NCBI GenBank assembly: GCA_964474435.1
Contig: CAYYSI010000002.1
Span: 163,604-227,603 of the forward strand
Direction of reading: 5' to 3'
Length of the DNA: 64,000 nt
Source: an uncultured Candidatus Saccharibacteria bacterium
GTDB lineage: Bacteria > Patescibacteriota > Minisyncoccia > Phycocordibacterales > UBA9973
A program made the translations under genes and the position numbers. The number at the start of each line of letters is the position of its first letter. Positions within the stretch are counted from its first letter, which is position 1. This document shows, piece by piece, positions 26,095-41,618 of the stretch. Under the pieces are notes generated by a model. That model saw nothing but the letters and a program-made list of their open reading frames with translations. It searched no databases and was not told the DNA's origin.

Positions 26095-28236
26095 ATGCAA
26101 CGAGAGTACCCCCTCAATAAAACACGTAACTTCGGAATCATTGCCCACATTGATGCCGGCAAAACCACGACTTCAGAACGCGTGCTCTACTATACTGGTC
26201 AGAGTCACAAGATCGGAGAAGTGCACGATGGTGAGACCACAACTGACTGGATGGAACAGGAGCGAGAGCGCGGTATCACTATCACTGCAGCTGCGGTGAC
26301 TTGTGCGTGGATCCCAACATATGAAAAAGGGGACAAGAGTAAGAGCTTCCGATTCAACATCATCGATACGCCAGGACACATCGACTTTACGGTGGAAGTG
26401 AAGCGATCACTGCGTGTACTCGACGGAGCAGTAGTGGTGTTCGACGGTGTTGCAGGAGTAGAACCTCAATCAGAAACAAACTGGCGTTACGCTGATGAAG
26501 CGCAAGTACCGCGTATTTGTTTTGTGAATAAACTCGACCGAACTGGTGCATCATTTGAACATTCATACAAGACGATCCAGGAACGACTTTCAAAGAAAGC
26601 TGTGCGATACCAGATCCCAATCGGACTTGAAGAAAATCACGAAGGTGTTGTTGATCTCCTCGAAATGAAGGCCTACTACTTCGAAGGTGAGATGGGGAAC
26701 AAGGTGATCCAAAAGGAGATCCCAGAAAACATGCTCGCCGAAGCCAAGACACTTCATGCAGAACTCGTCGAACGCATTGTCGAAAATGACGAAGCACAAA
26801 TGAATGCATACCTCGAAGGCAACGAACCAAGTCTTGCAGAACTCAAGGCAACCATGCGCAAGGCAGTCATTGCAAATGCAATCTTCCCAGTCTTTGCAGG
26901 TTCTGCATTGAAAAACAAAGGTGTACAGCTCGTCCTCGACGCCGTTGTTGACTACTTGCCAGCACCGATTGATATCAAGGCGATCACTGGTGTTAATCCA
27001 GATACTGACGAAGCGATTGATCGACCAGCAGACGATAGTGCACCGTTTTCAGCGCTCGCATTCAAGCTCATGGCCGATCCATTCGTTGGACAGCTCGTCT
27101 TCTTCCGTGTGTATTCAGGTACGCTCGAAGCAGGGTCATCGATCTACAATCCACGTACTCGCAACAAGGAACGCATCTCTCGTATCGTGCGCATGCAAGC
27201 CGACCAGCGTGAAGAAGTCCAGAAAGTATTCGCAGGAGAAATCGCGGCAGCTGTGGGACTCAAGGATGTGATCACGTCAGACACACTCTGTGATGAAGCA
27301 AATCCGATCGCGCTTGATCGTATCAAGTTCCCAGACCCAGTTATCTCACTCCGTATTGAACCAAAGACCAAAGCTGACCAAGAAAAGATGGGTCTTGCAC
27401 TCAACCGTCTCGCCAAAGAAGACCCAACCTTTGTGGTATCAACTGATCCAGAAACGATGGAAACTATCATCGCAGGTATGGGAGAGCTCCACCTCGAGAT
27501 CATCATCGATCGTATGAAGCGTGAGTTCAACGTTGAAGCAAACGTTGGTAAGCCACAGGTTGCATACCGCGAGACTATCACTGGTACTGCAGAAGTAGAA
27601 GGTAAGTACATCAAGCAGTCTGGAGGTAAGGGTAACTACGGTCACGTGAAAATCAAGATGAAGCCAATGGATCAGTCTATCAAGGCAGAAGACTTGCCAA
27701 AGAACACGACTCGCAAAAATGGTTACGAATTCATCAACAACATCAAAGGAGGAGCTATTCCAAATGAATTCATCCCACCAATCGAAAAAGGATTCCGAGA
27801 AGGTTTGGAACGTGGTGTACTCGCAGGCTTCAAACTCGAAAACGTCTCTGTCGAACTTTACGATGGATCATTCCACGAAGTCGACTCAAACGAAATGGCC
27901 TTCAAGATTGCTGCATCAATGGCAGTGCAGGATGCTGCAAAGATGGCAAAGCCTGTTATTCTTGAACCAATGATGAAAGTCGAAGTCGTCACTCCTGACA
28001 AGTTCATGGGAGATGTGACGGGATCACTCTCAGGCAAGCGAGGTATCATCGAAGGAATGGAGACTCGTGGACTCAACCAGGTCGTCAACGCAGTTGTACC
28101 GCTTTCAGAAATGTTTGGCTACATGACGAACCTTCGCTCTATGACCGAAGGACGCGCCGGATTTACGATGGAATTCCTCCGTTACGACATCGTGCCGACC
28201 AACGTTGCCGAGACGATCATCGCAGCGAGAAAATAA
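26095..28236 (+). CDS. fusA: Elongation factor G.
   Basis: 713 aa. G-domain motifs AHIDAGKTT and DTPGHIDF, with domains II-V present. Confidence 0.95.
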
Positions 28237-28249
28237 TTACTCACAAAAT

Positions 28250-28275
28250 CTCCCCGAAAGGGGAGTTTTTGTTTT
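28250..28275 (+). terminator. Intrinsic terminator after fusA (CTCCCCGAAAGGGGAG plus T-tract).
   Basis: Perfect 6-bp GC stem with GAAA loop and TTTTTGTTTT. It belongs to the recurrent ccccgaaagggg terminator family in this window. Confidence 0.6.
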
Positions 28276-28301
28276 GACAAAAAGTGAAATATAGATATAA
28301 T
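28274..28301 (+). promoter_or_regulatory. Consensus sigma70-like promoter (TTGACA-16-TATAAT).
   Basis: ttgacaaaaagtgaaatatagatataat, directly downstream of the fusA terminator and upstream of the 141-aa ORF. Confidence 0.5.
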
Positions 28302-28326
28302 AAAGAAAAACTTAAAACAATTTCAT

Positions 28327-28752
28327 ATGAACAAAAGCAAAGTCCTCTTGCCAGAGGCTATTTTGATCCTTGGCAAGAAAAAAGGAATCATACGGATTCT
28401 AGGAACCAAAAGGAAATGGAAAATAAATGCAACACAGCGTACTGGCGAAATGCAGGTTGAGGGTACCGGAAGACTTGTAATCCGAGTCCTAAAACATCCT
28501 TGCAGCAGTTCTTTATCTGTTGCATACTCGCCAAACGAACATGAAGAGAAATCTTTATTCACCGTACTAAGCTCTAATGTAGAAGGCCAAACTGAACGGA
28601 TCAGGGTTATACCGACCAATGGTTTTGAAGAGTCTCCCGGTTTAGTTACTATAGTGAAGGGGATATATAATTATTTCAATCAACTCCTTCCCCCTACTAT
28701 GCGGTTACCAGAGTTTGCCACCCAATGTTCATCCGGTGATGTTTGCTATTAA
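28327..28752 (+). CDS. Hypothetical protein inserted between fusA and tuf.
   Basis: 141-aa ORF, AT-rich, flanked by its own promoter and terminator. No family recognised. Coding status is uncertain. Confidence 0.3.
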   Translation: MNKSKVLLPEAILILGKKKGIIRILGTKRKWKINATQRTGEMQVEGTGRLVIRVLKHPCSSSLSVAYSPNEHEEKSLFTVLSSNVEGQTERIRVIPTNGFEESPGLVTIVKGIYNYFNQLLPPTMRLPEFATQCSSGDVCY

Positions 28753-28763
28753 TTTTTTTTGAA

Positions 28764-28792
28764 AGAGCCTTCGCAAGAGGCTCTTTTTCTTT
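28764..28792 (+). terminator. Intrinsic terminator.
   Basis: agagcct-tcgcaag-aggctct followed by TTTTTCTTT. Confidence 0.55.
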
Positions 28793-28818
28793 GACAAAAC
28801 ACCTCCACCTGTTATCAT
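28791..28818 (+). promoter_or_regulatory. Sigma70-like promoter for tuf (TTGACA-16-TATCAT).
   Basis: ttgacaaaacacctccacctgttatcat. The ~80-nt leader contains hairpin gcctcc-tccc-ggaggc. Confidence 0.45.
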
Positions 28819-28899
28819 AGGGGACAACCTATTTTGCGCCTCCTCCCGGAGGCTGGTTGGTTTTGTTTGTACGATTATTAGATATATAACATTTATTAT

Positions 28900-30090
28900 A
28901 TGGCAGAAGCATTTAAGAGAGACAAGCCACACGTAAACGTTGGTACCATCGGTCACGTTGACCATGGCAAGACCACGCTTACCGCGGCAATCCTTCATGT
29001 ATTGAACATGGCAGGAAACACAGTTAAGTTGAAGGGTGTTGGAGACATCGACGGTGCTCCAGAAGAAAAGGCACGTGGTATTACGATCAACATTTCGCAC
29101 AATGAGTACGAAACTGCGACTCGTCACTACGCACACATTGATGCTCCAGGTCACGCCGACTACATCAAGAACATGATTACTGGTGCAGCTCAGATGGACG
29201 GTGCAATCATTGTGGTTGCAGCGACTGATGGTGCTATGCCACAGACTCGTGAACACATCCTCCTTGCAAAGCAAGTTGGTGTGCCAAAGATCATCGTGTT
29301 CCTCAACAAGTGTGACATGGTGGACGATGCCGACATGATCGACCTCGTTGAAGAAGAAATCCGAGAAATCCTCGGCAAGCAAGGCTTTGACAAAGACTGC
29401 CCGGTTATCCGCGGATCAGGTCTCAAGGCACTTGAATCAACTTCTATTGATGACCCATGGGCACAAAAGGTTCTTGAGCTCACAAACGCGCTCGACACCT
29501 ACATCCCAATGCCAGAACGTGAAATCGACAAGCCATTCCTTATGCCGATCGAAGATATCTTTTCTATCGAAGGACGTGGAACGGTGGTTACTGGTCGTAT
29601 CGAACGTGGTCAGGTAAAGGTTGGAGAAGAAATTGAAATCGTTGGTATCAAGGACACTGTGAAAACAACTGTTACTGGTATCGAAATGTTCAACAAACAG
29701 CTCGACACTGGTTTGGCAGGTGACAACGCAGGTATCCTCCTTCGCGGTGCGAAGAAAGATGACCTCACTCGTGGTCAGGTGCTTGCAAAGGTTGGCTCAG
29801 TGAAGCCTCACACAGAATTTGAAGGTGAAGTGTACATCTTGAAGAAGGAAGAAGGCGGACGCCACACTCCATTCATCAACGGATACAAGCCTCAGTTCTA
29901 CGTGCGAACAACTGACGTGACTGGAGAAGTATCACTCCCAGCAGGAACAGAAATGGTCATGCCAGGAGATACTGTAAAGATCACTGTCAAGCTCGTTGTG
30001 CCAGTTGCGCTCGAAGACCAAATGCGTTTTGCTATCCGAGAAGGAGGCCGAACCGTTGGAGCTGGAGTGGTAACAAAGGTTATTGCGTAA
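28900..30090 (+). CDS. tuf: Elongation factor Tu.
   Basis: 396 aa. [10 protein letters not shown] and DAPGHADY, with high identity to canonical EF-Tu throughout. Confidence 0.95.
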
Positions 30091-30174
30091 ATACTAATAA
30101 GGCGTGAGTCGCGGACTCTTTCATGAAAACATAAGCACTCATGATCGATCATCCAACGCTATGCCGAGTTCATT

Positions 30175-30534
30175 ATGACAACAAAAACCCCAGCAAAAAA
30201 AACGAAAGCTACGAAAAAGGACGACGTACAAAGCATGCTTCGCATCCGAGTACGAGCGTACGAAAACAAAATTCTTGATGCGTCAGTGAAGCAGATCGTG
30301 GACACTGCAGTACGGTACGATGCCGTAGTCCGTGGTCCGATCCCATTGCCAACTGAGATCAAGAAGTACACGGTCAACCGTTCTCCGTTCATCTACAAAA
30401 ACGCTCGTGAGCAATTTGAGATGCGCGTACACAAGCGATTGATCGACATCGAAAACCCTTCACCCAAAGTCATTGAGGCGCTTACAAACCTCTCAATGCC
30501 ATCTGGTGTAGATATTGATGTCAAAATGATGTAA
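30175..30534 (+). CDS. rpsJ: 30S ribosomal protein S10, with a Lys-rich N-terminal extension.
   Basis: [24 protein letters not shown] ... RGPIPLPT ... [24 protein letters not shown]. Confidence 0.9.
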
Positions 30535-30595
30535 GGGAACATTTATCCAGCGAAGACGTAGTCTGAGTCGGGTAAAGCAAAAATTACTCAGCAAA

Positions 30596-30624
30596 AAATC
30601 CCCGAAAGGGGATTTTTTGTTTTA
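30596..30624 (+). terminator. Intrinsic terminator (ATCCCCGAAAGGGGAT plus T-tract) after rpsJ.
   Basis: aaaaaatccccgaaaggggattttttgtttt. Identical hairpins recur at 31708 and 32163. Confidence 0.6.
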
Positions 30625-30660
30625 GAAATTCTTTAACTCGTACCTGATACGATTTATATT

Positions 30661-31053
30661 ATGAACAAAAAAGATTATTCAATCTGGCATGATATAAAAA
30701 CTGAAGTTCATAATAAAAAAGAGCGGCCATATTTTCATGAGCGAGAAATATGGTTTTGTATGCTCGGTGCAAATATTGGTTTTGAACAAGATGGAAGAGG
30801 AAAAGAATATCTGCGCCCTGTGGTCGTTATAAGAAAGTTTAATAATGAGGTTTGTCTGGTAATCCCTCTGACCAAGAATCATAAGAAAGGAATTCATTAT
30901 TTTTCTTTCTTATATAAAGATGAGATGGTTAGCACTGCTATTCTTTCACAGGTGAGACTTGTTGATGCAAAACGTTTGGATTACAAATCTGGAACTATAT
31001 CAGAACTTGATTTTCTATCATTAAAACAAAAACTCAAGCGGTTGATTGCCTGA
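30661..31053 (+). CDS. MazF/PemK/Kid-like endoribonuclease toxin-fold protein, apparently solitary.
   Basis: 130 aa. EREIWFCMLGANIGFEQDGRGKEYLRPVVVIRKFNNEVCLVIPLT and VRLVDAKRL align with the MazF/EndoA pattern (GD.Y...L.P..GSEQ.G.RPVLV. ... IRTIDK.RL). No small antitoxin-like ORF lies upstream. Confidence 0.55.
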   Translation: MNKKDYSIWHDIKTEVHNKKERPYFHEREIWFCMLGANIGFEQDGRGKEYLRPVVVIRKFNNEVCLVIPLTKNHKKGIHYFSFLYKDEMVSTAILSQVRLVDAKRLDYKSGTISELDFLSLKQKLKRLIA

Positions 31054-31207
31054 GTTTTTGTACTTTTTACCCCGAAGGGAGGGCCGAAGCCATTTGTACT
31101 ACTAGTATACTTGGCGCTCGTGATAAGTCAATTTTCCCCGAAGGGAACGTGAGTAGCCCAAAATGTATACTAAGTATATCAAACCCTATTTGCTATAATT
31201 ACTCAAT

Positions 31208-31699
31208 ATGAAAAATATACAACAGGGTTTTATCGGCATAGTACTGATTATTGTTGCGGCACTTGCAATCGGAGGAGGTGTATATTACCAACACAAGAAC
31301 AAAGTGGAAGTGAAGCAGCAAGTGGACACTAGTGTTGTTGTAAACGATGAGCAGAAAACTGTTGAGGAACAAAAACCTGCACCAGCAAAGAAACCAGTAG
31401 TACTAAGCTTTGAAGCAAAGGCGCGTGCTGCTGCGAAGGCGGGTGAATGTGGGAAAAAGGGTACGATCGGCGCTGCTACAAATGTACAAGAAGAATATGA
31501 GTACGCACTATTCACTATTGATGGCTCAACTACTGCGAACTATTGTGCTGTCGATTTGTATGCAGGTACTATCACTGCTATCAATTCAAGACCCCTATGT
31601 GATGCAAATGGTGAGAATTGTCATGGAACTGGACTTATGCTGACACCTAAAAAGCTATACGAAAGTATTCCTGTAGCACCTGACCCTTCAACTCTCTAA
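31208..31699 (+). CDS. Membrane-anchored hypothetical protein, Cys-containing extracytoplasmic domain.
   Basis: 163 aa. N-terminal TM helix (FIGIVLIIVAALAIGGGVYY), a Lys/Glu/Pro linker and a C-terminal domain with 4 Cys. Confidence 0.4.
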   Translation: MKNIQQGFIGIVLIIVAALAIGGGVYYQHKNKVEVKQQVDTSVVVNDEQKTVEEQKPAPAKKPVVLSFEAKARAAAKAGECGKKGTIGAATNVQEEYEYALFTIDGSTTANYCAVDLYAGTITAINSRPLCDANGENCHGTGLMLTPKKLYESIPVAPDPSTL

Positions 31700-31707
31700 G
31701 TAAAAAA

Positions 31708-31758
31708 ATCCCCGAAAGGGGATTTTTTGTTTGACCAATTCTTGAAAAAGAGTAGAGT
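31708..31758 (+). promoter_or_regulatory. Terminator plus promoter module (ATCCCCGAAAGGGGAT plus T-tract, then TTGACC-16-TAGAGT).
   Basis: aaaaaatccccgaaaggggattttttgtttgaccaattcttgaaaaagagtagagt. A near-identical module recurs at 32163-32210. Confidence 0.5.
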
Positions 31759-31776
31759 GAAGCAAAACTTACAATT

Positions 31777-32154
31777 ATGAACCTTATATTTAAAAAACTA
31801 TTTTTGGGAGTATTACTCTCCACAGTGTTACTTGTACCCTTTTTAGAAGGTGAGTATGTTAAGAGCCAAATTATCAGGATAGTTCTTGCATGGCTCGGTG
31901 TATGGCTTGCATGGGTACTATTTCTGATGAGTGTTACTCGAATCTTTTCCGTAAAACGTACTGACCTGATAAATATTGCCACAATATTTATTTCGTTTTT
32001 CATATTAGTTCTCTTGGTTGTTCACTCAAAGGTCTTGCCAGATCATTTTCTCCGAACATTCTTTCCAGTGATTACGGCGGTATTGTATTGTGGAGCTTTC
32101 TCTTATGCTCGTGCTTACATCAAAGCTAAAAAAGAAGCAAACATATCCTGCTAA
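31777..32154 (+). CDS. Small polytopic hypothetical membrane protein.
   Basis: 125 aa with 3-4 predicted TM helices. Confidence 0.4.
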   Translation: MNLIFKKLFLGVLLSTVLLVPFLEGEYVKSQIIRIVLAWLGVWLAWVLFLMSVTRIFSVKRTDLINIATIFISFFILVLLVVHSKVLPDHFLRTFFPVITAVLYCGAFSYARAYIKAKKEANISC

Positions 32155-32162
32155 TCCTTCAA

Positions 32163-32210
32163 ATCCCCGAAAGGGGATTTTTTTGACTTATTTTCAAAAA
32201 AGAGTAGGGT
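32163..32210 (+). promoter_or_regulatory. Terminator plus promoter module (ATCCCCGAAAGGGGAT plus T-tract, then TTGACT-16-TAGGGT).
   Basis: aaatccccgaaaggggatttttttgacttattttcaaaaaagagtagggt. It is paralogous to the 31708 module. Confidence 0.5.
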
Positions 32211-32229
32211 ACAAGAAAAATATAATTTT

Positions 32230-32514
32230 ATGAGTAAAATCATCAATCTCCAGGTTTATTGGCAGACTCACTGTGACCAAAAATATCTCGTCATAAAGAA
32301 AGCTGACAAGGAGTATGTTAATCCGCAGGCAACAATTCGTTCTCTTGCTCTTGATATCGAAGACAACTTTCTCCCTAAAGAAAAAGATGCTCTTGTAAAT
32401 ATCAATTGTAGTCCAGATTTTGAGATATCGATTAGATACGGAAAAAACCCTAAACATAACCAGGCACTTTCCGAGGAGGAAGAAGTTCAATTATTCAAAG
32501 AGCTTCATGATTAA
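32230..32514 (+). CDS. Hypothetical small protein.
   Basis: 94-aa ORF. No family recognised. Confidence 0.35.
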   Translation: MSKIINLQVYWQTHCDQKYLVIKKADKEYVNPQATIRSLALDIEDNFLPKEKDALVNINCSPDFEISIRYGKNPKHNQALSEEEEVQLFKELHD

Positions 32515-32534
32515 AAACTTCTGATAGAGATGTA

Positions 32535-32558
32535 AGGCCCTATTTAATAGGGCTTTTT
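32535..32558 (+). terminator. Intrinsic terminator.
   Basis: aggcccta-ttta-atagggct followed by TTTTT. Confidence 0.5.
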
Positions 32559-32566
32559 ATATAAAC

Positions 32567-32594
32567 TTGCGTGATTTTAAAAGCCGTGTATAAT
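32567..32594 (+). promoter_or_regulatory. Sigma70-like promoter for the rplC operon (TTGCGT-16-TATAAT).
   Basis: ttgcgtgattttaaaagccgtgtataat. The ~60-nt leader contains hairpin agaccaa...ttggtct. Confidence 0.5.
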
Positions 32595-32654
32595 CTCCAG
32601 ACCAATTAAAAGGCCGCCTTTGGTCTCAGAAAAATGGTCCAATACCCGCCCTAG

Positions 32655-33290
32655 GTGGCGAGCAAGAACATGAAATTCATCATCGGAACAAAACTCAATA
32701 TGACGCAGCGCTTCGACGAGAAGGGAATCGTTACTCCTGTAACGGCTATTTCTGTTGACGCAAACGTTGTGACAGCCCTCAAGACTGTCGAAAAGGATGG
32801 CTATACTGCAGTCCAGGTTGGATTCGGGACCCAAAAGGAATCTCGTGTAAATCAGGCACAGCTCAAGGCCAATGACGGCAAGGCATTCAAAGGCATGCAG
32901 GAATTCCGCACAGACGGTGCGACAGATGTTGCGGTCGGAGATGCAGTTGCACTCTCTGCATTTGCAGCAGGGGATGATGTCGTTGTGACTGGGACATCCA
33001 AGTCAAAAGGCTTCCAAGGTGTGGTCAAGCGACACGGCTTCCACGGAGGACCTCGCTCTCACGGTCAGAAGCACTCAGAACGTGAACCAGGATCAATTGG
33101 TGGTGGACCAGGACGTGCCGGAGGCCGCGTGGTCAAGGGTATGCGCATGGCAGGACGCACCGGAGGTGATACTGTGACTGTGAAGGGCCTCAAGGTAGTG
33201 GCAGTTGATGAAGCTTCAAACATGATCTTCATCAGTGGCGCAGTGCCAGGTCGTCGAGGAACGCTTGTTCGTATCGTGAGTATGAGTTAA
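32655..33290 (+). CDS. rplC: 50S ribosomal protein L3.
   Basis: The conserved core begins MKFIIGTKLNMTQRF at 32670, which may be the true start. The track ORF opens 5 codons earlier at a GTG. Confidence 0.9.
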   Translation: MASKNMKFIIGTKLNMTQRFDEKGIVTPVTAISVDANVVTALKTVEKDGYTAVQVGFGTQKESRVNQAQLKANDGKAFKGMQEFRTDGATDVAVGDAVALSAFAAGDDVVVTGTSKSKGFQGVVKRHGFHGGPRSHGQKHSEREPGSIGGGPGRAGGRVVKGMRMAGRTGGDTVTVKGLKVVAVDEASNMIFISGAVPGRRGTLVRIVSMS

Positions 33291-33294
33291 TTAT

Positions 33295-34005
33295 ATGGCT
33301 ACAACAAAAACAACAACTAAAAAGGCTCCAACCACAGTATCTCTCGATGCAACTATTTACTCACAGGCTGGAAAGAGTGCTGGAACAGTTACTCTTCCCG
33401 AAAAAGTATTCGGACTCAAGTGGAATGCCGACCTCGTACACGAAGTGGTGACATCAATGATGGCCAACAAGCGCGCAGGCACCGCTCATACCAAGGATCG
33501 CTCAGAGGTTTCTGGTGGTGGTAAAAAGCCATGGAAGCAAAAGGGAACTGGTCAGGCTCGACACGGCTCAACTCGATCTCCTATCTGGAGTGGTGGAGGT
33601 ATCACATTCGGTCCTCGCAACGACAAGGATTATTCTAAAAAGATCAACAAAAAGACTCGCGTCAAAGCACTCTTTACGGTCATCTCTCGCAAGTACGCAC
33701 TTGGTGCAATGCTCTTTGTGGATGCGGTATCACTCTCTGCAATGAAGACAAAGGATGCACAGTCAGTCGTGTCTGCATGGGCAAAGGTTGATGGATTTGA
33801 TAAGATCGACTCAACCAAGAAAACGGGTACACTTATGGTGCTTCCTGAGCATGATGTAAACGTTGAAAAGAGTTTTGCAAACCTCCCTGGTGTCACCACT
33901 GTGTTGCTTGCAGATATCAACCCACTCACGCTCATGAATTTCCGTCACATCGTGATGGTAAATCCCGCAGCTCTCGTACCAGTGTTAGAAGCAAAGATGA
34001 AATAA
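33295..34005 (+). CDS. rplD: 50S ribosomal protein L4.
   Basis: 236 aa. ...GGGKKPWKQKGTGQARHGS... is the canonical L4 motif. Confidence 0.9.
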   Translation: MATTKTTTKKAPTTVSLDATIYSQAGKSAGTVTLPEKVFGLKWNADLVHEVVTSMMANKRAGTAHTKDRSEVSGGGKKPWKQKGTGQARHGSTRSPIWSGGGITFGPRNDKDYSKKINKKTRVKALFTVISRKYALGAMLFVDAVSLSAMKTKDAQSVVSAWAKVDGFDKIDSTKKTGTLMVLPEHDVNVEKSFANLPGVTTVLLADINPLTLMNFRHIVMVNPAALVPVLEAKMK

Positions 34006-34010
34006 ACTAT

Positions 34011-34319
34011 ATGGCTACTACAAAAGACACAACTAAAAAGGTAGAAGTGAAGGCAAGTGTGCTCAAGCGTCCTCGCATTACAGAAAAGGCGGCAAACAAT
34101 GCGAGCCACTCTTGCTACCTCTTTGATATTGCTCCAGGTACGACCAAGAATGAAGTCGCAAAGGCATTCCAGGCGCAGTACAAGCAAAAGCCTATCAAGG
34201 TAAATGTGGTCAATGTGAAGCCAAAGTCATTTTTCCGACGCGGCGTCCTCGGCTTTGCCAAGAAGAGCAAGAAGGCGTATGTCTTTTTAAAGAAAGGCAC
34301 GACGATCGAAATAATGTAA
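34011..34319 (+). CDS. rplW: 50S ribosomal protein L23.
   Basis: 102 aa. VLKRPRITEKAANNASHSCYLFDIAPGTTKNEVAKAF. Confidence 0.9.
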   Translation: MATTKDTTKKVEVKASVLKRPRITEKAANNASHSCYLFDIAPGTTKNEVAKAFQAQYKQKPIKVNVVNVKPKSFFRRGVLGFAKKSKKAYVFLKKGTTIEIM

Positions 34320-34332
34320 AGAGTTATTATTT

Positions 34333-35169
34333 ATGAAATCACGCAAACCAACATCAGCAGGACAGAGACAGACACTTACGATCGACTATCGCAAGCTTTT
34401 GACTCGCACCAAGCCAGAGAAATCTCTCACGGTTGGACAGAAGCGTCACGTAGGCCGCAACAACCTCGGTCGTATCACGACTCGCCACAAAGGAGGAGGT
34501 AACAAACGCAACTACCGTCTCGTAGACTTTACATACAACAAACACGACATTCCGGCTCGCATTGACTCTATCGAATACGATCCAAACCGATCTGCATTTA
34601 TCGGACTTGCCATCTATGCTGACGGCGAGAAGCGATACGTTGTCCTCCCAAAGAACATGAAGGTTGGTGACAAATTCATCGTCTCTGAAACTGCCGCAAT
34701 CGAAACTGGAAACCGCCTCCCATTCAAAAATATCCCTGCAGGTACATTCGTCTACAACATCGAGGTGAAACCTGGGGCGGGGGCAAAGATCGTTCGCTCA
34801 GCAGGTTCATTTGCTCAGATTGTTGCGCAAAACGAAGGTTACACCCAGCTCAAACTTCCATCATCTGAAATCCGCCGTGTCCAAGAAACATGTTGGGCAA
34901 CCATCGGTACGGTATCAAACGATGAGAACAAACTCGTGCGATACGGAAAGGCTGGCCGAAGTCGATGGATGGGTATCCGACCGACTGTCCGTGGTACTGC
35001 CATGAACCCTGTGGATCACCCATACGGTGGAGGTGAAGGCGTACAGGGCCGTGGTACCAAGCGTCCCAAGACTCTCTGGGGTAAGGTTACTGGCGGTCGC
35101 AAGACTCGTACTCCAAAGAAGTACTCAAACCAAAACGTCATCTCGAGACGCAAGGTTGGGAAGAAATAA
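34333..35169 (+). CDS. rplB: 50S ribosomal protein L2.
   Basis: 278 aa. ...MNPVDHPYGGGEG... is the canonical L2 motif. Confidence 0.95.
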   Translation: MKSRKPTSAGQRQTLTIDYRKLLTRTKPEKSLTVGQKRHVGRNNLGRITTRHKGGGNKRNYRLVDFTYNKHDIPARIDSIEYDPNRSAFIGLAIYADGEKRYVVLPKNMKVGDKFIVSETAAIETGNRLPFKNIPAGTFVYNIEVKPGAGAKIVRSAGSFAQIVAQNEGYTQLKLPSSEIRRVQETCWATIGTVSNDENKLVRYGKAGRSRWMGIRPTVRGTAMNPVDHPYGGGEGVQGRGTKRPKTLWGKVTGGRKTRTPKKYSNQNVISRRKVGKK

Positions 35170-35201
35170 TTTCTCCACTATTCTTAAATTTTTTACAAGA
35201 A

Positions 35202-35249
35202 GCCATCCGAAAGGGTGGTTTTTGACTTTTTTAATATATTTGGTATAGT
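35202..35249 (+). promoter_or_regulatory. Terminator (gccatcc-gaaa-gggtggt plus T-tract), then sigma70-like promoter (TTGACT-16-TATAGT), downstream of rplB.
   Basis: agccatccgaaagggtggtttttgacttttttaatatatttggtatagt. Confidence 0.45.
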
Positions 35250-35264
35250 AAATAAAAATCTTTT

Positions 35265-35462
35265 ATGAAAAAGTTCTATATTTGCTGCTTGATAGTATGG
35301 CTCGGTCTGCTGGTTGTACTCATACTGATTGGTTCAAAACCTCAGTATCAAAAACAAAGCGGGGCCATATTTGGACTATTATTCTTTAGTTTCCCCCTGC
35401 TTCTCATTTCAGCCGGCAATATCCTTAATACGTTTTTTAATAAAATCCTATTTCATAAATAG
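35265..35462 (+). CDS. Small hydrophobic hypothetical protein (2 TM helices).
   Basis: 65-aa ORF, MKKFYICCLIVWLGLLVVLILIG...FGLLFFSFPLLLISAG. Its 3' end overlaps the unused upstream portion of ORF 35329-35895. Coding status is uncertain. Confidence 0.3.
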   Translation: MKKFYICCLIVWLGLLVVLILIGSKPQYQKQSGAIFGLLFFSFPLLLISAGNILNTFFNKILFHK

Positions 35463-35487
35463 GATTTTATCTATTATACTTCTTGGA

Positions 35488-35895
35488 ATGGAAGAAAAAC
35501 TCTCAAAGAATATATCAGAAAAGAAACGCTTCTCAATCATTGCTCGCGCGCGAAGTTTTAAGCATGCAGTACGGGGGATTGGTATCATTTTTAAAACACA
35601 GCACAATGCGTGGGTGCATACAATCGCAGGGATTGCTGTAGTGGGACTGGGATTGCATCTCAAGATCAATGAAGCTGAATGGTCTGCCATTATCATAGCC
35701 ATAGCTGCTGTATTGGCCGCAGAAGGCTTCAATACAGCCCTCGAAATCGACATTGATCTTACCAGTCCAGACTACCATCCCTATGCCCGGGACACGAAGG
35801 ATGTGGCCGCAGGGGCAGTACTTTTGACGGTTATCGGAGCAGTTTTGGTCGGATTGATCATATTTATTCCAAAGCTCATACCGCTTTTCTCATAA
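35488..35895 (+). CDS. dgkA: Diacylglycerol kinase / undecaprenol kinase family protein (DgkA-like).
   Basis: The start was re-chosen at MEEKLSKNISEKKRFS within ORF 35329-35895. SFKHAVRGIGIIFKTQHNAWVH ... AEGFNTALEIDIDLTSPDYHPYARDTKDVAAGAVLL matches the DgkA signature (AE..NTAIE..VD......H...K.AKD.GSAAV). Confidence 0.65.
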   Translation: MEEKLSKNISEKKRFSIIARARSFKHAVRGIGIIFKTQHNAWVHTIAGIAVVGLGLHLKINEAEWSAIIIAIAAVLAAEGFNTALEIDIDLTSPDYHPYARDTKDVAAGAVLLTVIGAVLVGLIIFIPKLIPLFS

Positions 35896-35897
35896 AG

Positions 35898-35925
35898 TTT
35901 GACATTGCCTCACAATTTGCTACTA
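35898..35925 (+). promoter_or_regulatory. Sigma70-like promoter (TTGACA-16-TACTAT) upstream of rpsS.
   Basis: ttgacattgcctcacaatttgctactat. Confidence 0.4.
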
Positions 35926-35962
35926 TACTCGGAGCTCAAAACCGGGCTTCTTTTTTTCTCAC

Positions 35963-36310
35963 ATGACACGATCACTCGCAAAAGGACCATATATTGACGA
36001 AAAACTCCTCAAAAAGATTGCAGGCAAACAGCCGCTTTCTGCAGGAGTGATTAAGACATGGTCACGTGCAAGTCAGATCGCACCAGAAATGGTTGGCTTT
36101 ACCTTTGGCGTTCACAATGGCAAGACGCATGTTGAAGTGCTCGTCACTGAGGACATGGTGGGACACCGATTAGGAGAATTCTCATTGACTCGCAAGTTTA
36201 CACGACACGGCGGTAAGATGCAGAAGGAAATCGACCAAAAGAAAAAGGAAGCTGAAATCACTGCTGCAAAGTCTGCAAAGGCTACGACTGCTGATACCAA
36301 GAAGAAATAA
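35963..36310 (+). CDS. rpsS: 30S ribosomal protein S19, with a Lys/Ala-rich C-terminal tail.
   Basis: [18 protein letters not shown] ... GVHNGKTHV ... GHRLGEF..TR. Confidence 0.9.
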
Positions 36311-36328
36311 TCTCATTTTATCAATACC

Positions 36329-36688
36329 ATGAAAGCAACACTTACCAATTATCGACAATCACCTCGCAAGGTTCGCCTTGTGGCTAATGCCGTGAAAGGG
36401 AAGTCACTTGCCGATGCTGATGTGACACTTGCATACATGGTCAAGCGTGGCGCGCTCCCAATGCAGAAATTGATCAAGAGTGCTGCGGCAAATGCAGTGC
36501 AATCAGGCGCTGATGCATCAACACTTATGATCAAGAATGTGGAGGTAAACAAAGGCATCGTGCTCAAGCGTTCAATGCCACGCGCGATGGGTGTTGCAAA
36601 GCCAATCAACAAGCGAAACTCTCACGTCACAGTGACTCTTGCGCAGATTGTCCCAAAGCAAAGTAAGCGTAAGGTAGTTAAGAAATAA
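36329..36688 (+). CDS. rplV: 50S ribosomal protein L22.
   Basis: 119 aa. SPRKVRLVANAVKGKSLADA. Confidence 0.9.
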   Translation: MKATLTNYRQSPRKVRLVANAVKGKSLADADVTLAYMVKRGALPMQKLIKSAAANAVQSGADASTLMIKNVEVNKGIVLKRSMPRAMGVAKPINKRNSHVTVTLAQIVPKQSKRKVVKK

Positions 36689-36695
36689 TAATTAT

Positions 36696-37367
36696 ATGTC
36701 AAAAGTAGTCCATCCATATGCACACCGCCTCGTAATCCTTCGTGATTGGAAATCACGCTGGTTTGCAACTGACAAAAACTATGTGAACAACCTTCACGTC
36801 GATGTTGTCGTGCGCCAATACCTCGAGAAGCGTCTCCGTGTTTCATACCTCTCAAGTGTTGAAATCGAACGCGGTCAAAAGGCACTTCGTATCATTCTCC
36901 GCACCTCACGTCCTGGTATGATCATTGGACGAAGTGGTGAAGGCGCAACCAAGCTCAAAGCTGACCTTGTAAAGGAACTCAAGCGTGCAAAGCTCAATGT
37001 CACTGATGACATCAAGCTTGAAATCGTCGAAGTCACGAGTCCTGATGCTGACGCAAAGATCGTTTCATTTATGATTGCCGAAGGTCTCGAGAAGCGTCTC
37101 CCATACCGACGCGTCATGAAGCAGCTCATCGAAAAGGTGATGGCAGTGCGCGGCGTGCAAGGAGTGAAGTTCTATCTCGGCGGTCGCCTCGGTGGTGCAG
37201 AAATCTCACGTTCAGAAGTCCTCAAGCGTGGTTCAATCCCACTTCAGACATTCCGTGCTGACATCGACTACGCTCGCGAGCGCGCAAACCTCGCCTATGG
37301 TGTGATCGGTATCAAGGTATGGATCTACAAAGGTCAGGTGTTTGGCACTGAGGAAAAGACTAAATAA
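36696..37367 (+). CDS. rpsC: 30S ribosomal protein S3.
   Basis: 223 aa with KH-domain features. RPGMIIGRSGEGATKLK. Confidence 0.9.
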   Translation: MSKVVHPYAHRLVILRDWKSRWFATDKNYVNNLHVDVVVRQYLEKRLRVSYLSSVEIERGQKALRIILRTSRPGMIIGRSGEGATKLKADLVKELKRAKLNVTDDIKLEIVEVTSPDADAKIVSFMIAEGLEKRLPYRRVMKQLIEKVMAVRGVQGVKFYLGGRLGGAEISRSEVLKRGSIPLQTFRADIDYARERANLAYGVIGIKVWIYKGQVFGTEEKTK

Positions 37368-37373
37368 ACTACT

Positions 37374-37790
37374 ATGTTATTCCCGAAAAAAGTAAAATTT
37401 AGAAAGTGGCAGAAAAAGAGAACCAAGATGGATGGTCGTGTTGAAACACGTGGTACTGCGGTGACATTTGGCTCATACGGTCTCAAGACTGAAAGTATGT
37501 CTCGCATCACCTCAAACCAGATCGAAGCAGCCCGCAAGGCAGCATCTCGCCACCTCGGCAAAGTCGGTCGCATGTGGATCCGAGTATTCCCTGATCGACC
37601 AATCACAAGTAAGCCTGCAGAAGTACCGATGGGTGGAGGAAAGGGAGACCTCGACGGATACTGCATGGAAGTATTGCCAGGTCGCATCATCTTTGAAGTA
37701 GATGGCGTTACCGAAGCAGTTGCCCGAGAAGCCCTCCGCAAGGCAGGAACCAAGCTCCCACTCAAGACACGCGTCGTTGAACGAGTCTAA
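37374..37790 (+). CDS. rplP: 50S ribosomal protein L16.
   Basis: 138 aa. MLFPKKVKFRKWQKKR ... GKGDLDGYCMEV. Confidence 0.9.
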   Translation: MLFPKKVKFRKWQKKRTKMDGRVETRGTAVTFGSYGLKTESMSRITSNQIEAARKAASRHLGKVGRMWIRVFPDRPITSKPAEVPMGGGKGDLDGYCMEVLPGRIIFEVDGVTEAVAREALRKAGTKLPLKTRVVERV

Positions 37791-37842
37791 TCTGCCGCAA
37801 ACTCGACAGAACTCAAAAAATAAGTAATATACACTCACTAGC

Positions 37843-38097
37843 ATGCAATCATCCACGAAAAACAACAAAATACTCCGAGGCACCGTTGTCTCAGACAAAA
37901 TGGATAAAACCGTGGTTGTTGCTGTGACGCGTTTCGTCAAGCATGCAAAGTACCAGAAGTTCTTGAAAATCACCAAGAAATTCAAGGCACATGACGAGAA
38001 CAATGAGTCGAAAGTAGGGGACGAAGTTTCATTGCGTCAGACACGCCCACTCTCAAAGGACAAGCGCTTTGAAGTAGTTAAGGAAGCTACGAGTTAA
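37843..38097 (+). CDS. rpsQ: 30S ribosomal protein S17.
   Basis: 84 aa. [27 protein letters not shown]. It directly follows rplP after a 52-nt gap with no rpmC in between. Confidence 0.9.
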
Positions 38098-38101
38098 TTG
38101 T

Positions 38102-38473
38102 ATGTTGCAAGATGGATCAATCGTAAAAATCACAGACAATGCCGGCGGTAAGGTAGGCAAGATCTTCAAGGTACTTGGAGGTAGTAAGCGTCGCTATGCA
38201 GGTATTGGCGATGTTGTTGTCCTTTCGATCAAGGTTGCAGAACCTCGCAAGAACGTAAAGAAAAAGGATGTATGTTATGCAGTCGTTGTTCGTCAGCGCA
38301 ATGCATTTCGCCGCAAGGACGGTTCATACATCCGCTTTGATGACAATGCAGTTGTGATCATCGAAAAGGGCAAGAAAGAACCAAAGGCAGGTCGCATCTT
38401 TGGTCCAATCCCACGCGAGATCGGTGAACTCGGATACCAGAAAATCGTGTCACTCGCACCAGAAGTGCTATAA
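38102..38473 (+). CDS. rplN: 50S ribosomal protein L14.
   Basis: 123 aa. MLQDGSIVKITDNAGGK ... GDVVVLSIK. Confidence 0.9.
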   Translation: MLQDGSIVKITDNAGGKVGKIFKVLGGSKRRYAGIGDVVVLSIKVAEPRKNVKKKDVCYAVVVRQRNAFRRKDGSYIRFDDNAVVIIEKGKKEPKAGRIFGPIPREIGELGYQKIVSLAPEVL

Positions 38474-38481
38474 CCATTTTT

Positions 38482-38691
38482 ATGAAAATCAAGAAAGGAG
38501 ACAATGTAGTAGTTATCGCCGGCAAGCACAAAGGTGCCAAGGGCAAGATCGCGCAGATCGTGGGAGAGCGCGTGGTTGTTGACGGCGTCAACAAAATGAA
38601 ATTTCATGTGAAGGCAAAGAGCAAGACTGAAAAGGGCTCTATTGTTGAGCGCGAAGCACCATTGCATCACTCAAACGTAAAGAAAGTATAA
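38482..38691 (+). CDS. rplX: 50S ribosomal protein L24 (short form).
   Basis: 69 aa. KOW motif KIKKGDNVVVIAGKHKGAKGKI. Confidence 0.85.
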   Translation: MKIKKGDNVVVIAGKHKGAKGKIAQIVGERVVVDGVNKMKFHVKAKSKTEKGSIVEREAPLHHSNVKKV

Positions 38692-38701
38692 TCATTTATA
38701 T

Positions 38702-39250
38702 ATGGAAATCACCAAGCAAAAACAAGATAGCGCATACAAGACCCTCGGCCAGTTTGGCTACAAGGCAAAGCTCGCAGCTCCACGACTTTTGAAAATTGTG
38801 GTGGCAAGTGGCACAGGGTCTGGTATGAAGAAAGACCGTGAGAAAAACAACACGATCATCGATCGTCTCGCGCGTATCACTGGGCAGAAACCAACACTTC
38901 GCATCGCAAAGAAATCTGTTGCGTCATTTAAGGTTCGAGAAGGGGATCCGATCGGTGTCTCAGTGACACTTCGCGGTGCTCGCATGAACCACTTCATGGA
39001 CAAGCTCATCAACATCGCCATCCCTCGTACCAAGGACTTCCGTGGTATCGACCGCAAGGCAGTGGACAACATCGGCAACATGACGCTCGGTATCAAGGAG
39101 CACACGATCTTCCCAGAAACCTCTGACGAAGACCTCCGCGATGTATTCGGCTTTGCGATCACCCTCGTTTCATCTGCAAAGACCAAAGCAGAAGCACTCG
39201 CATTCTTTGAACACCTCGGCATCCCGTTCAAGAAAGAAGAAGCGAAATAA
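38702..39250 (+). CDS. rplE: 50S ribosomal protein L5.
   Basis: 182 aa. ...PRTKDFRGI... LGIKEHTIFPE. Confidence 0.9.
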   Translation: MEITKQKQDSAYKTLGQFGYKAKLAAPRLLKIVVASGTGSGMKKDREKNNTIIDRLARITGQKPTLRIAKKSVASFKVREGDPIGVSVTLRGARMNHFMDKLINIAIPRTKDFRGIDRKAVDNIGNMTLGIKEHTIFPETSDEDLRDVFGFAITLVSSAKTKAEALAFFEHLGIPFKKEEAK

Positions 39251-39331
39251 TTTTTTACTCACAAACACCTCCCGATCGGGAGGTGTTTGACTTTTGTATA
39301 GAGAAGCATAGAGTTAACAAAACTCCCGCTC

Positions 39332-39958
39332 ATGAAAAAGATAATAATAACCCCTACGCTCAAGGAGTACATACTCCTTCCTATTATTCCTCCACTCAGT
39401 ATTTATCTCTGTCTTCAATTTCTCCCACAACTTGCTGATTTTCTTAATGGCACAGTGATTGTTTTTGTTTGTGTATATATTATAGCTGCTATACATATCC
39501 GAAAATGGACATGGAAACAGCTTGGTGTTGAATTTGGCAATATTACATTAGCGAAAATAGGACTTTGTTTTGCTGGTCTCGCAGCAGGTATTGGTTGGCT
39601 ATGGATTCTCGGACATCTTAATCCAGAAAAATGGGATTTTAGTACGCAAAAAAATATCGGTCTTGTTAAATGGGCCGGACTTGGAGTCTTCGGACAAGTT
39701 CTTATTTTTCAGGGATATTTGCCCCAGCTCGGAAATAGTTTAGAGATAAGACCCTGGATCAACTTTAGTTGGAACGCAATTTCTTTTATAGGAATGCATC
39801 TTATTTTCAGTGATCTTGGAAAAGTTATGCCTATTATTATTCCCGCGTCTATCCTTTTTGCAGGACTGTATTGGAAATGCCGTAATAGCCTTTTGGTATC
39901 GATTGTTCATATGCCACTGACCGCTATTACTATTCTGGAACTTATTTTTAAAATCTGA
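39332..39958 (+). CDS. CPBP/Abi-like polytopic membrane protein, inserted between rplE and rpsZ.
   Basis: 208 aa with ~6 TM helices. FIGMH fits motif 2 (F...H) of CPBP intramembrane proteases and SIVHMPLT may be motif 3. The EE..R motif 1 is not evident. AT-rich. Confidence 0.4.
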   Translation: MKKIIITPTLKEYILLPIIPPLSIYLCLQFLPQLADFLNGTVIVFVCVYIIAAIHIRKWTWKQLGVEFGNITLAKIGLCFAGLAAGIGWLWILGHLNPEKWDFSTQKNIGLVKWAGLGVFGQVLIFQGYLPQLGNSLEIRPWINFSWNAISFIGMHLIFSDLGKVMPIIIPASILFAGLYWKCRNSLLVSIVHMPLTAITILELIFKI

Positions 39959-39963
39959 TTAAA

Positions 39964-40020
39964 CAGCAGGCACAATGCCTGCTGTTTTTGTTTGACATTG
40001 TAGGGGCACTCTGGTACGAT
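39964..40020 (+). promoter_or_regulatory. Terminator (cagcaggca-caa-tgcctgctg plus TTTTTG), then sigma70-like promoter (TTGACA-17-TACGAT) upstream of rpsZ.
   Basis: cagcaggcacaatgcctgctgtttttgtttgacattgtaggggcactctggtacgat. A ~95-nt leader follows. Confidence 0.5.
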
Positions 40021-40119
40021 ACCCCAGTTCTTCGGTAATCCACGATTTTCTCTCTGGAGACCCTCTCGGGGGAATCTAGAGAAATAACCGTGTGATATTC
40101 CCCAGAACGATCCCATTCT

Positions 40120-40316: not shown

Positions 40317-40712
40317 ATGGTAACCGACCCAATTTCAAACATGATCATCAGTATGAAGAACGGCGCACTCGTTTCAAAGAAAACAGTCGTTGTCCCTTTC
40401 TCAAAGCTCAAGTACGCAATCGCGCAGTGCTTGAAAGAGCAGGGCTACATTACTGAAGCTTCAAAAAAGACTGAAAAGAACAACGTGCCCGTACTCGAAA
40501 TGACACTTGCATACCACGGTGACGCTCCACGCATTCACGATGTGAAGCGAATGTCGAAGCCTTCTCGCCGCACGTACCTTGGTGTCCACGACATCCGTGG
40601 GGTCAAAAATGGTCATGGTATGGTTGTGCTCTCAACTCCGAAAGGAATTTTGACTGACAAGCAGGCTCGCAAGGAAATGGTCGGCGGAGAGGCGTTATTT
40701 ATGATTTGGTAA
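40317..40712 (+). CDS. rpsH: 30S ribosomal protein S8.
   Basis: 131 aa. DPISNMIISMKNG ... STPKGILTDKQARK. Confidence 0.9.
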   Translation: MVTDPISNMIISMKNGALVSKKTVVVPFSKLKYAIAQCLKEQGYITEASKKTEKNNVPVLEMTLAYHGDAPRIHDVKRMSKPSRRTYLGVHDIRGVKNGHGMVVLSTPKGILTDKQARKEMVGGEALFMIW

Positions 40713-41613: not shown

Positions 41614-41618
41614 TACAT

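Follow-up and report, generated by a model that had tools for sequence, protein, structure and literature searches.

Ribosomal-protein (r-protein) genes of the str-S10-spc supercluster are interrupted at several points by extra genes in a 64,000-nucleotide (nt) stretch of DNA, hereafter the window, from an uncultured Candidatus Saccharibacteria bacterium (GTDB lineage Bacteria; Patescibacteriota; Minisyncoccia; Phycocordibacterales; UBA9973; GenBank assembly GCA_964474435.1, contig CAYYSI010000002.1, positions 163,604 to 227,603). Across a large Parcubacteria clade the break points are ancient operon borders defined by promoters, and the genes lodged in them are accessory cargo. The reading that we favour, with a probability of about 0.7, is that the supercluster consists of separate units with conserved promoters, the borders of which act as tolerated slots for cargo that turns over. 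What is new is that borders lie within the classical operons (str, S10 and spc), that they recur across the clade, that the cargo turns over in a cassette-like manner and that leader elements are associated with the borders; our literature search found no description of these break points or of r-protein leaders in the candidate phyla radiation (CPR).

Operon borders shared across a Parcubacteria clade

Open reading frames (ORFs) and Pfam matches on the + strand of the window give the order rpsL, rpsG, fusA, orf141, tuf, rpsJ, a MazF-like gene, orf163, orf125 and orf94 in the 5′ part, followed by rplC, rplD, rplW, rplB, orf65, dgkA, rpsS...rplE, a gene for a 208-amino-acid (aa) membrane protein, rpsZ, rpsH...secY, adk and map in the 3′ part. 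Extra genes lie at four junctions: orf141 at fusA/tuf, the MazF-like gene with three ORFs at rpsJ/rplC, orf65 with dgkA at rplB/rpsS, and the gene for the membrane protein, which is CPBP-like, at rplE/rpsZ. The genes do not form contiguous str, S10 and spc operons of the E. coli/Bacillus type, there being gaps of 666, 796 and 872 nt between fusA and tuf, rplB and rpsS, and rplE and rpsN/Z, with ORFs that carry their own signals. A preliminary description of the region had reported a cluster interrupted by extra loci, and all of the features that it listed were found in, or close to, the places where it had put them.

The same junctions are open in related genomes. Relatives were represented by 80 species-level loci around rplB, the nearest by L2 similarity (58–86% identity of the rplB product), from metagenome-assembled genomes (MAGs) labelled Nomurabacteria, Paceibacterota, Kaiserbacteria, Minisyncoccia or Parcubacteria; cluster genes were placed in them by tblastn, and a gap was counted when it exceeded 400 nt. 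The L2 matches assign the window to the CPR/Patescibacteria. Such gaps were found at fusA/tuf in a fraction of 0.84 of the loci (median 1188 nt), at rplB/rpsS in 0.77 (median 956 nt), at rplE/rpsZ in 0.57 (median 629 nt), at rpsG/fusA in 0.50 and at rpsJ/rplC in 0.22, and at all other r-protein junctions in 0–0.01. Promoter matches within 200 nt upstream had a similar distribution, with fractions of 0.71 for tuf, 0.89 for rpsS and 0.70 for rpsZ, versus 0.04–0.15 for internal genes. Terminator-like sites followed fusA, rplB and rplE in 0.26–0.34 and rpsG and rpsJ in 0.17–0.20 of the loci, with values of 0–0.07 after most internal genes and 0.11 after rpsZ. Junctions that are free of cargo keep a TTGACw-16/17-(TG)TAnTAT promoter and a leader, in gaps of 84–160 nt at rplB/rpsS and of 140–270 nt at rplE/rpsZ. 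Since the promoters are present even without cargo, the borders are an old property of the lineage, independent of insertions.

These data revise the earlier view of four independent insertions peculiar to this genome: the positions of the breaks are common to most of the 80 species, and promoters and leaders are kept where inserts are absent. The architecture is unusual, as had been proposed, when set against model bacteria, but it is normal for the clade. The preliminary description had itself named the presence of inserts at the same positions in all relatives as a sign of ancient fixed arrangements, as opposed to accessory insertions, and the positions shared with the 80 relatives come close to this.

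Within the window, a scan of the + strand between 24.6 and 44.5 kb returned five promoter matches of at least 10/12 positions, 5/5 of them within junctions (starts at 28274, 12/12; 28791, 11/12; and 35222, 35899 and 39992, each 10/12). The junctions therefore hold sequences of the sigma70 type (TTGACA/TATAAT, 16–18 nt spacing, 10–12/12 matches) in conserved positions. Strong sites of a hairpin followed by T residues were located at 28250, 30593, 31703, 32161, 35198, 39262 and 39961, and GC-rich hairpins with a T/U-tract, as expected of intrinsic terminators, at 28250, 28761, 30593, 31703, 32158, 35198, 39262 and 39961. As with the promoters, the best of these hairpin sites lie within junctions. 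The orf141 terminator (28761) was overlooked by the scan rule because its stem absorbs the T-tract. At fusA/orf141, orf141/tuf, orf163/orf125, orf125/orf94, rplB/orf65, rplE/CPBP and CPBP/rpsZ, the T-tract of the hairpin runs straight into the next TTGAC. Both the promoter and the terminator that had been assigned to the 141-aa ORF were recovered. The broader claim, that a terminator followed by a promoter marks every break, holds at almost every boundary, but not at dgkA/rpsS, where the promoter precedes a hairpin and T-tract belonging to the rpsS leader; at mazF/orf163 there are only degenerate hairpins, and the mazF and orf94 promoters are weak. Judged from these signals, about 12–13 transcription units are predicted between rpsL and map, in place of the at least six proposed before. 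Coordinates are collected in Table 1.

Table 1. Genes and predicted transcription signals of the supercluster in the window
Feature	Position	Strand	Remarks
fusA	26095-28236	+	ORF listing and Pfam
Terminator after fusA, CTCCCCGAAAGGGGAG	28250..28275	+	T-tract enters next −35 box
orf141 promoter, TTGACA-16-TATAAT	28274..28301	+	12/12
orf141	28327..28752	+	ORFan cassette
orf141 terminator, GAAAGAGCCTTCGCAAGAGGCTCTTTT	28761..28787	+	
tuf promoter, TTGACA-16-TG-TATCAT	28791..28818	+	position kept in 71% of relatives
tuf leader hairpin and U-rich tract	28838..28868	+	
tuf	28900-30090	+	
rpsJ	30175-30534	+	
Terminator after rpsJ	30593..30620	+	palindrome AAAAAATCCCCGAAAGGGGATTTTTTG, copy 1
MazF/PemK-like gene	30661..31053	+	PF02452
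Degenerate hairpin TTTTCCCCGAAGGGAACG	31133..31150	+	left edge of orf163 indel
orf163	31208..31699	+	cassette; N-terminal hydrophobic segment
Palindrome terminator, copy 2	31703..31758	+	right indel edge; fused to promoter TTGACC-16-TAGAGT
orf125	31777..32154	+	hydrophobic; no family match
Palindrome terminator, copy 3	32158..32188	+	runs into TTGACT
orf94	32230..32514	+	no family match
rplC promoter and leader	32567..32654	+	TTGCGT-17-TATAAT
rplC to rplB	ends 35169	+	
Terminator after rplB	35198..35249	+	overlaps orf65 promoter TTGACT-16-TG-TATAGT
orf65	35265..35462	+	small hydrophobic ORFan
dgkA	35488..35895	+	PF01219
rpsS promoter, TTGACA-16-TG-TACTAT	35899..35926	+	promoter kept here in 89% of relatives
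Hairpin and U7	35931..35957	+	4 nt past −10 box, at expected 5′ end of rpsS transcript
rpsS to rplE	35963 to 39250	+	
Terminator after rplE, 12-base-pair stem	39262..39314	+	overlaps promoter of CPBP-like gene, TTGACT-16-TAGAGT
CPBP/Rce1-like 208-aa membrane protein	39332..39958	+	fast-evolving
Terminator of CPBP-like gene	39961..39987	+	
rpsZ promoter, TTGACA-17-TG-TACGAT	39992..40020	+	promoter kept here in 70% of relatives
Structured leader RNA of rpsZ-rpsH unit	40026..40108	+	core like S8 site of 16S rRNA helix 21
rpsZ	starts 40120	+	

The r-protein genes have further peculiarities. Between rplP and rpsQ (37790-37843) rpmC, encoding L29, is gone, leaving a gap of 55 nt versus ~226 nt in most relatives, and no L29-like ORF was found in the 64-kb window; rpmC is likewise not at this junction in L002, L019, L023, L024, L034, L056, L077, L091 and L092. 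L24 (rplX, 38482-38691) has just 69 aa, compared with 98–102 aa in L091 and L093 and 76 aa in L092, and its C-terminus appears to be truncated in the window's subclade. The 5′ ends of rplD and rplW (33289-33325 and 34005-34041) have a near-identical 37 nt (MATTK-TTKK...), and the start of rpsE (41613-41649) encodes a similar Thr-rich N-terminus, so that the three share N-terminal extensions. Directly 3′ of map, in place of the alpha operon, lies a gene for a 1165-aa repeat protein with a peptidoglycan-binding domain (45586-49083), and upstream of rpsL are genes for ComEC, an MBL-fold protein and an M50 peptidase, not rpoBC. Elsewhere in the window there is a transfer-messenger RNA (tmRNA) gene (59503-59892, − strand, 128.7 bits), with a SmpB-family match among the other ORFs; two adjoining ORFs have an 83-nt 5′ end in common (9056-9138 and 9961-10043, 94% identical), and an ORF at 6428-7894 holds three tandem 57-nt repeats (7448-7618).

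Cargo of the junctions and its turnover

The cargo is hypervariable. The 356 gap ORFs fell into 305 blastp clusters, 280 of them singletons without a homolog in any other gap; among the multi-member clusters 12/25 span two junction types, so that the junction occupied by one family differs from species to species. Of the cargo ORFs that reach at least 100 aa, about 70% point in the same direction as the cluster. The Pfam families of the cargo extend from housekeeping functions to transposases and include DUF3298, DgkA, IS200-like Y1 transposases (at rplB/rpsS in four species), MazF and mechanosensitive channels; pyrD, pyrF, purC, purE, L10/L12 and Mur ligase; and response regulators, pilin-like proteins and reverse transcriptase. 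Some junctions hold genes typical of mobile elements, such as those for a reverse transcriptase and a DUF559 endonuclease at rplE/rpsZ in relatives. At rplB/rpsS of L091, whose r-proteins are ~90% identical to the window's, dgkA is followed by a GIY-YIG nuclease gene (5354-5626) that adjoins rpsS. Most cassettes turn over fast, while dgkA and the CPBP-like gene are long-standing residents.

Family matches of the window's own inserts in Pfam, NCBIfam and PADLOC were limited to MazF, DgkA and a weak CPBP match, with none for orf141, orf163, orf125, orf94 or orf65. No homolog of orf141, orf65, orf125 or orf94 was found in the 80 related loci, and a word-index search of 5.8e9 proteins returned none for orf141. 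The MazF/PemK-like protein passes the PF02452 threshold (39.4 bits, cut-off 23.1); no ORF of at least 40 aa was found between the rpsJ terminator and mazF or, on the + strand, in 31054-31207, so that mazF has no neighbouring antitoxin ORF. Solitary MazF/PemK-like genes that leave no space for an antitoxin recur at differing junctions of the r-protein cluster in several Parcubacteria, lying after rplB in L061, L064 and L071, with a gap between rplB and mazF of just 112–133 nt in L061 and L071. DgkA matches PF01219 over profile positions 1-102 of 102 (104.2 bits, cut-off 22.3, E=3.7e-30), and dgkA is found at rplB/rpsS in nine genomes (the window, L091 and six loci out of the 80; the contig of locus L001 is the same sequence as the window). 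The hydrophobic 65-aa ORF and the DgkA-like kinase described earlier are thus both present at this junction, but the start of dgkA had to be corrected, most likely to the ATG at 35488 (135 aa), outside orf65.

The gene between rplE and rpsZ is where it had been described, but its assignment to the CPBP/Abi family falls under the PF02517 threshold (16.9 bits, cut-off 22.4, E=0.008), whereas two homologs, P0013 and P0016, do match PF02517. CPBP/Rce1 proteases have the catalytic motifs EExxxR, FxxxH and HxxxN/D. In the window's protein, motif 1 reads GQVLIFQG, without Glu-Glu, FIGMH is present, and the third motif, HMPLT, lacks N/D; the equivalents in the L091 homolog are QD, FIGMH and HIILS. Loss of the motif-1 glutamates suggests very fast evolution or an inactive protease. 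Genes of this kind are found at rplE/rpsZ in the window, L091 (9204-9839), L092 (3365-3991) and L093 (3001-3651), with identities to the window of 26% (211 aa), 35% and 27%, respectively, compared with 85–100%, and mostly ~90%, for the flanking r-proteins. A family member sits elsewhere in L094, and rplE/rpsZ holds no gene in L002. A word-index search returned no homolog of the window's protein, a full HMMER scan against 1.84e9 representatives yielded no more than 18 relatives, all of them weak, and a family hidden Markov model run against the gap ORFs of the 80 loci matched the window's own protein alone.

Turnover could be followed at strain level for orf163. L082, which is 96–98% identical to the window, is without it (window 31110-31710), and both edges of the indel lie inside CCCCGAA(A)GGGG hairpins, the degenerate TTTTCCCCGAAGGGAACG on the left and the terminator AAAAAATCCCCGAAAGGGGATTTTTTG on the right; L082 has one hybrid hairpin at this site, followed by the identical promoter. 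More widely, the whole rpsJ/rplC island varies. In L096, where the last 59 rpsJ residues (all that its contig holds) are identical to the window's, the island consists of two other small ORFs and an orf163 homolog with 63% identity, and in L099 an orf163 homolog (55%) lies directly upstream of rplC. By contrast, a 3.3-kb indel at rpsG/fusA that distinguishes L005 from L006 lies between the terminator and the fusA promoter, not inside a hairpin, and the L031/L033 pair gave no informative indel. The suggestion that integration occurs at terminator hairpins is in keeping with the edges of the orf163 indel, which fit recombination there. The inserts had also been regarded as accessory, and this applies to the ORFans orf141 and orf65, to orf163 and to the variable rpsJ/rplC island, dgkA and the CPBP-like gene being residents of long standing that did not arrive recently.

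The hairpin repeat TCCCCGAAAGGGGA has four copies in the window, 4/4 of them inside 28.2–32.2 kb; three of these share 20–26 identical nt, the fourth is related, and the 14-nt core is found nowhere else in the 64 kb. Convergence might account for the copies, but their local excess and the position of the orf163 indel edges speak more for recombination between terminator hairpins. The idea that the palindromic terminators are a mobile repeat family is weakened by the single occurrences of CCCCGAAAGGGG in three other species and by GAAA being the commonest tetraloop among the terminators of the 80 loci.

Leader RNAs of the r-protein units

Several r-protein promoters are followed by a hairpin and a U-tract past the −10 box. 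Among relatives this was seen for 78% of rpsS, 49% of tuf and 35% of rpsZ promoters, versus 7% of other strong matches. The hairpin begins 4–9 nt past the −10 box, where the transcript is expected to start, and the window's cargo promoters are without it. Stem-loops at the 5′ terminus stabilise mRNAs, as in the ompA leader and in stabilisers against RNase J of Bacillus. The tuf, rpsS and rpsZ transcripts are likewise predicted to open with a hairpin at their very first nucleotides. In contrast to those stem-loops, the hairpin is followed here by a U-tract, and because of this it also resembles a terminator for upstream transcription. It may stabilise the 5′ end, insulate the unit as a terminator, or do both.

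The rpsZ unit has, in addition, a structured leader. In a subset of genomes, an element of 80–100 nt lies upstream of a short, Zn-type rpsZ; these are the window, L002, L004, L009-L011, L014, L015, L019, L020, L023, L024, L027, L037, L042, L046 and L091-L093. A model of 26 base pairs is 88.5% paired, compared with 65.9±1.7% for shuffled sequences and at most 53% for slid controls, and 22/26 pairs show compensatory changes. Over 1.34 Mb of sequence, the covariance model gave a single hit per locus in 19 loci, each time immediately 5′ of rpsZ. Among 4227 Rfam models, the only match at gathering score was that of the tmRNA, and there was no credible match at E≤5 within 24–45 kb.

The invariant core of this element, 5′-AAUC...GAUAUU-3′, parallels 5′-AAGUC...GAUACU-3′ of helix 21 in E. 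coli, as checked against the E. coli sequence. Features of the S8 site in that helix are the pairs C599-G639 and U598-A640, a bulged U641, an invariant A642, and the pairs 597-643 and 596-644 (PMC4176348). In 14 aligned leaders the equivalent C-G and U-A pairs are present in 14/14, the UA bulge is invariant, and of the two covarying pairs that follow, the one equivalent to 596-644 reads AU in 8 leaders and GC in 6. A purine at position 595 that forms a base triple and a 597/643/641 combination isosteric with (G-C)-U are further features of the site; in most leaders the triple would be (A-U)-U. By analogy, we lean towards regarding the element as a candidate S8 feedback leader, which would correspond to the spc control of E. 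coli, displaced by one gene downstream to the new operon start. The likeness to the S8 mRNA mimic of the E. coli spc operon covers the C-G and U-A pairs, the bulged U-A and two more pairs (596-599/639-644), and the S8 gene (40317-40712) is the second gene of the rpsZ unit. The element differs from the mimic in being a 5′ leader upstream of rpsZ, not a structure at the start of rplE, and in belonging to no Rfam family. The E. coli RNA structures of this kind are narrowly distributed (PMC3616713).

Leaders of two other units were also considered. In L003-L006, L008-L010, L014, L020, L042, L058, L059 and L077, tuf leaders have a long hairpin with the conserved loop (GG)UUCUCGUR, a possible second leader motif; for the window this candidate was set aside, as the consensus fold is weak and the window's tuf leader fails to align. 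Upstream of rplC, the promoter and leader (GTGTATAATC...ACCAATT...AAAAATGGTCCAATACC) are kept in L096 (~1440-1520) and L099 (~720-813), and the region is a possible leader of the rplC-rplB unit. A metagenome pattern scan with GTGTATAATCYCYNNACCAATT from this promoter/leader gave four loci, which were rejected as chance matches because none encodes any cluster protein.

Competing explanations and significance

On the reading that we favour, the supercluster would be a row of units, rpsL-rpsG, fusA, tuf-rpsJ, rplC-rplB, rpsS...rplE and rpsZ...secY-adk-map, each of which would open with a conserved sigma70-type promoter and a leader of its own. A few borders would tolerate insertions because a gene that lies between an upstream terminator and the next promoter would leave r-protein expression undisturbed. 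Over time, the borders would gather self-contained cassettes made up of a promoter, an ORF and a terminator, and cassettes would be gained and lost at the short GC hairpins of the terminators. Some, such as dgkA and the CPBP-like gene, would persist, and most would be replaced quickly. The S8-site-like leader would give the rpsZ unit its own feedback control.

A number of points weigh against this reading. The 80 loci, chosen by L2 similarity, are not a balanced sample, and promoters and terminators were sought by simple consensus matching. Contiguous genes with no promoter match at rplB/rpsS are seen in a few loci, including the most distant (L075, L078 and L081) and closer ones such as L046 and L030, so the trait cannot be called universal in CPR. 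A single strain-level indel with its edges in hairpins was found; moreover, identical hairpins can arise by convergence, since the 12-mer CCCCGAAAGGGG occurs once in each of three other species of the 80 loci. In the candidate rpsZ leader, the 597-643 equivalent is AU in 13 leaders and GC in 1 (n=14), not G-C as in the S8 site; the position-595 equivalent varies (U, A or none) instead of being a conserved A; and there is one extra bulged base relative to the S8 site. The first two of these features also set it apart from the E. coli spc mimic. Finally, the terminators may be leaky and the promoters supplementary.

Taken further, this last point would make the cluster essentially one transcript, in which the hairpins merely cause weak pausing or affect RNA stability and the promoters supplement the expression of distal genes, the split being spatial only. 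Because the hairpin and U-tract of the rpsS, tuf and rpsZ leaders lie downstream of the promoter, transcripts that start there must read through them, and several junction hairpins are short, with stems of 6–8 base pairs. On the other hand, the stems after rplE and the CPBP-like gene are GC-rich, have 12 base pairs and are followed by T-tracts; minus-strand cargo in ~30% of the relatives' gaps would be antisense-transcribed; and the promoters, which have extended −10 TG motifs, show strong conservation. A single transcript therefore seems unlikely to us.

A more speculative proposal, to which we assign a rather low probability, is that the junctions are real cassette-exchange sites at which promoter-ORF-terminator cassettes would be excised and re-inserted within hairpins, as an integron analogue that would either be independent of a recombinase or use an unknown one, with the borders enabled by lineage-specific leader RNAs (the rpsZ S8-site mimic and the 5′-end hairpins). 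The likeness to integron cassette arrays lies in serial single-gene cassettes parted by short hairpin palindromes and in presence or absence at strain level. In its classical form, with the hairpins as recombination sites in the style of integron attC or IS200/IS605 elements and an unidentified recombinase moving cassettes between junctions, we find cassette exchange improbable. Both hairpin edges of the orf163 indel, the cluster of related palindromes within 4 kb, the cargo families that span two junction types, the Y1 transposases at rplB/rpsS and the GIY-YIG gene next to rpsS in L091 would all be expected. However, no integrase, transposase or recombinase, and hence no intI, is found in the window among the best 25 of 44 Pfam families; the hairpin sequences differ between junctions (rplB, rplE, CPBP-like gene); each cassette, unlike those of integrons, comes with a promoter and a terminator of its own; the palindromes are intrinsic terminators of the ordinary sort, at several sites and not at one attI; and the L005/L006 indel lies beside terminators, not within them. 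Deletion at microhomologies, or natural transformation with homologous recombination, explains the data equally well, the window encoding homologs of ComEC and of type IV pilus genes (Pfam).

It is also improbable, in our judgement, that the inserts are kept beside the r-protein units because their expression is coupled to growth rate or because they have a role linked to translation, candidates being DgkA and the CPBP-like protein for envelope synthesis and the MazF-like protein as an RNase on ribosomal transcripts. Retention of dgkA and of the CPBP-like gene at their junctions (nine and four genomes), the recurrence of solitary MazF-like genes in the cluster of four species and the predominant co-orientation of cargo are consistent with such placement. 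It is at odds with the excess of singletons (280/356 gap ORFs), with the cargo's own promoters and terminators, with the very fast evolution of the CPBP-like gene, its absence from L002 and the displaced family member in L094, and with the lack of homologs of orf141, orf65, orf125 and orf94 in the 80 related loci and, for orf141, in the database search as well. An artefact of assembly or binning, or spurious ORFs, might be suspected in view of every genome being a MAG and of orf141 and orf65 being ORFans, but deserves next to no credence: four independent sequencing runs yielded contigs with 100% identity to the window, so assembly error is not an issue, the same junctions recur in 80 MAGs from many separate studies, and the NCBI record calls all 8/8 insert ORFs as genes.

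Promoter-defined borders with turning-over cargo, the reading that we retain, have partial counterparts elsewhere. Horizontal-transfer hotspots are known in which few intergenic positions between core genes take most of the variable genes, and here, too, positions flanked by core genes hold the variable genes; unlike general hotspots, these lie in the most conserved gene array of bacteria, and what defines them is a set of internal promoters and leaders that are conserved. In Gammaproteobacteria and Bacilli, the translation supercluster is known to have evolved in part by the insertion of small numbers of genes between its operons (PMC8046335). The window resembles these in having few unrelated genes between neighbouring operons and in keeping the r-protein order, but its borders divide the str, S10 and spc operons known from E. 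coli and Bacilli (fusA/tuf, rplB/rpsS and rplE/rpsN/Z), they are common to most of a large clade, and their cargo is hypervariable.

About 16 syntenic r-protein genes serve as the standard marker block for placing CPR and other uncultured bacteria, and as a rule the block is taken to be a single contiguous array of operons. Most Paceibacteria-like genomes have it interrupted at the same three to five places, which are filled with variable genes, and this affects binning, chimera checks and the calling of genomic islands. One study reported genes for r-proteins and tuf to be among the predominant 'horizontally acquired' translation genes of Patescibacteria (PMC12455944). Mosaic clusters could contribute to such calls. 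To our knowledge, no r-protein regulators are known in the phylum, and the candidate S8-responsive leader, supported by covariation, and the conserved start-site hairpin motif provide testable material. If true, an integron analogue would sit in the part of the genome with the highest conservation and transcription. The clade shows how an ancient gene cluster can be divided anew: internal promoters and leader RNAs are acquired, and the borders formed in this way then serve as tolerated sites of insertion.

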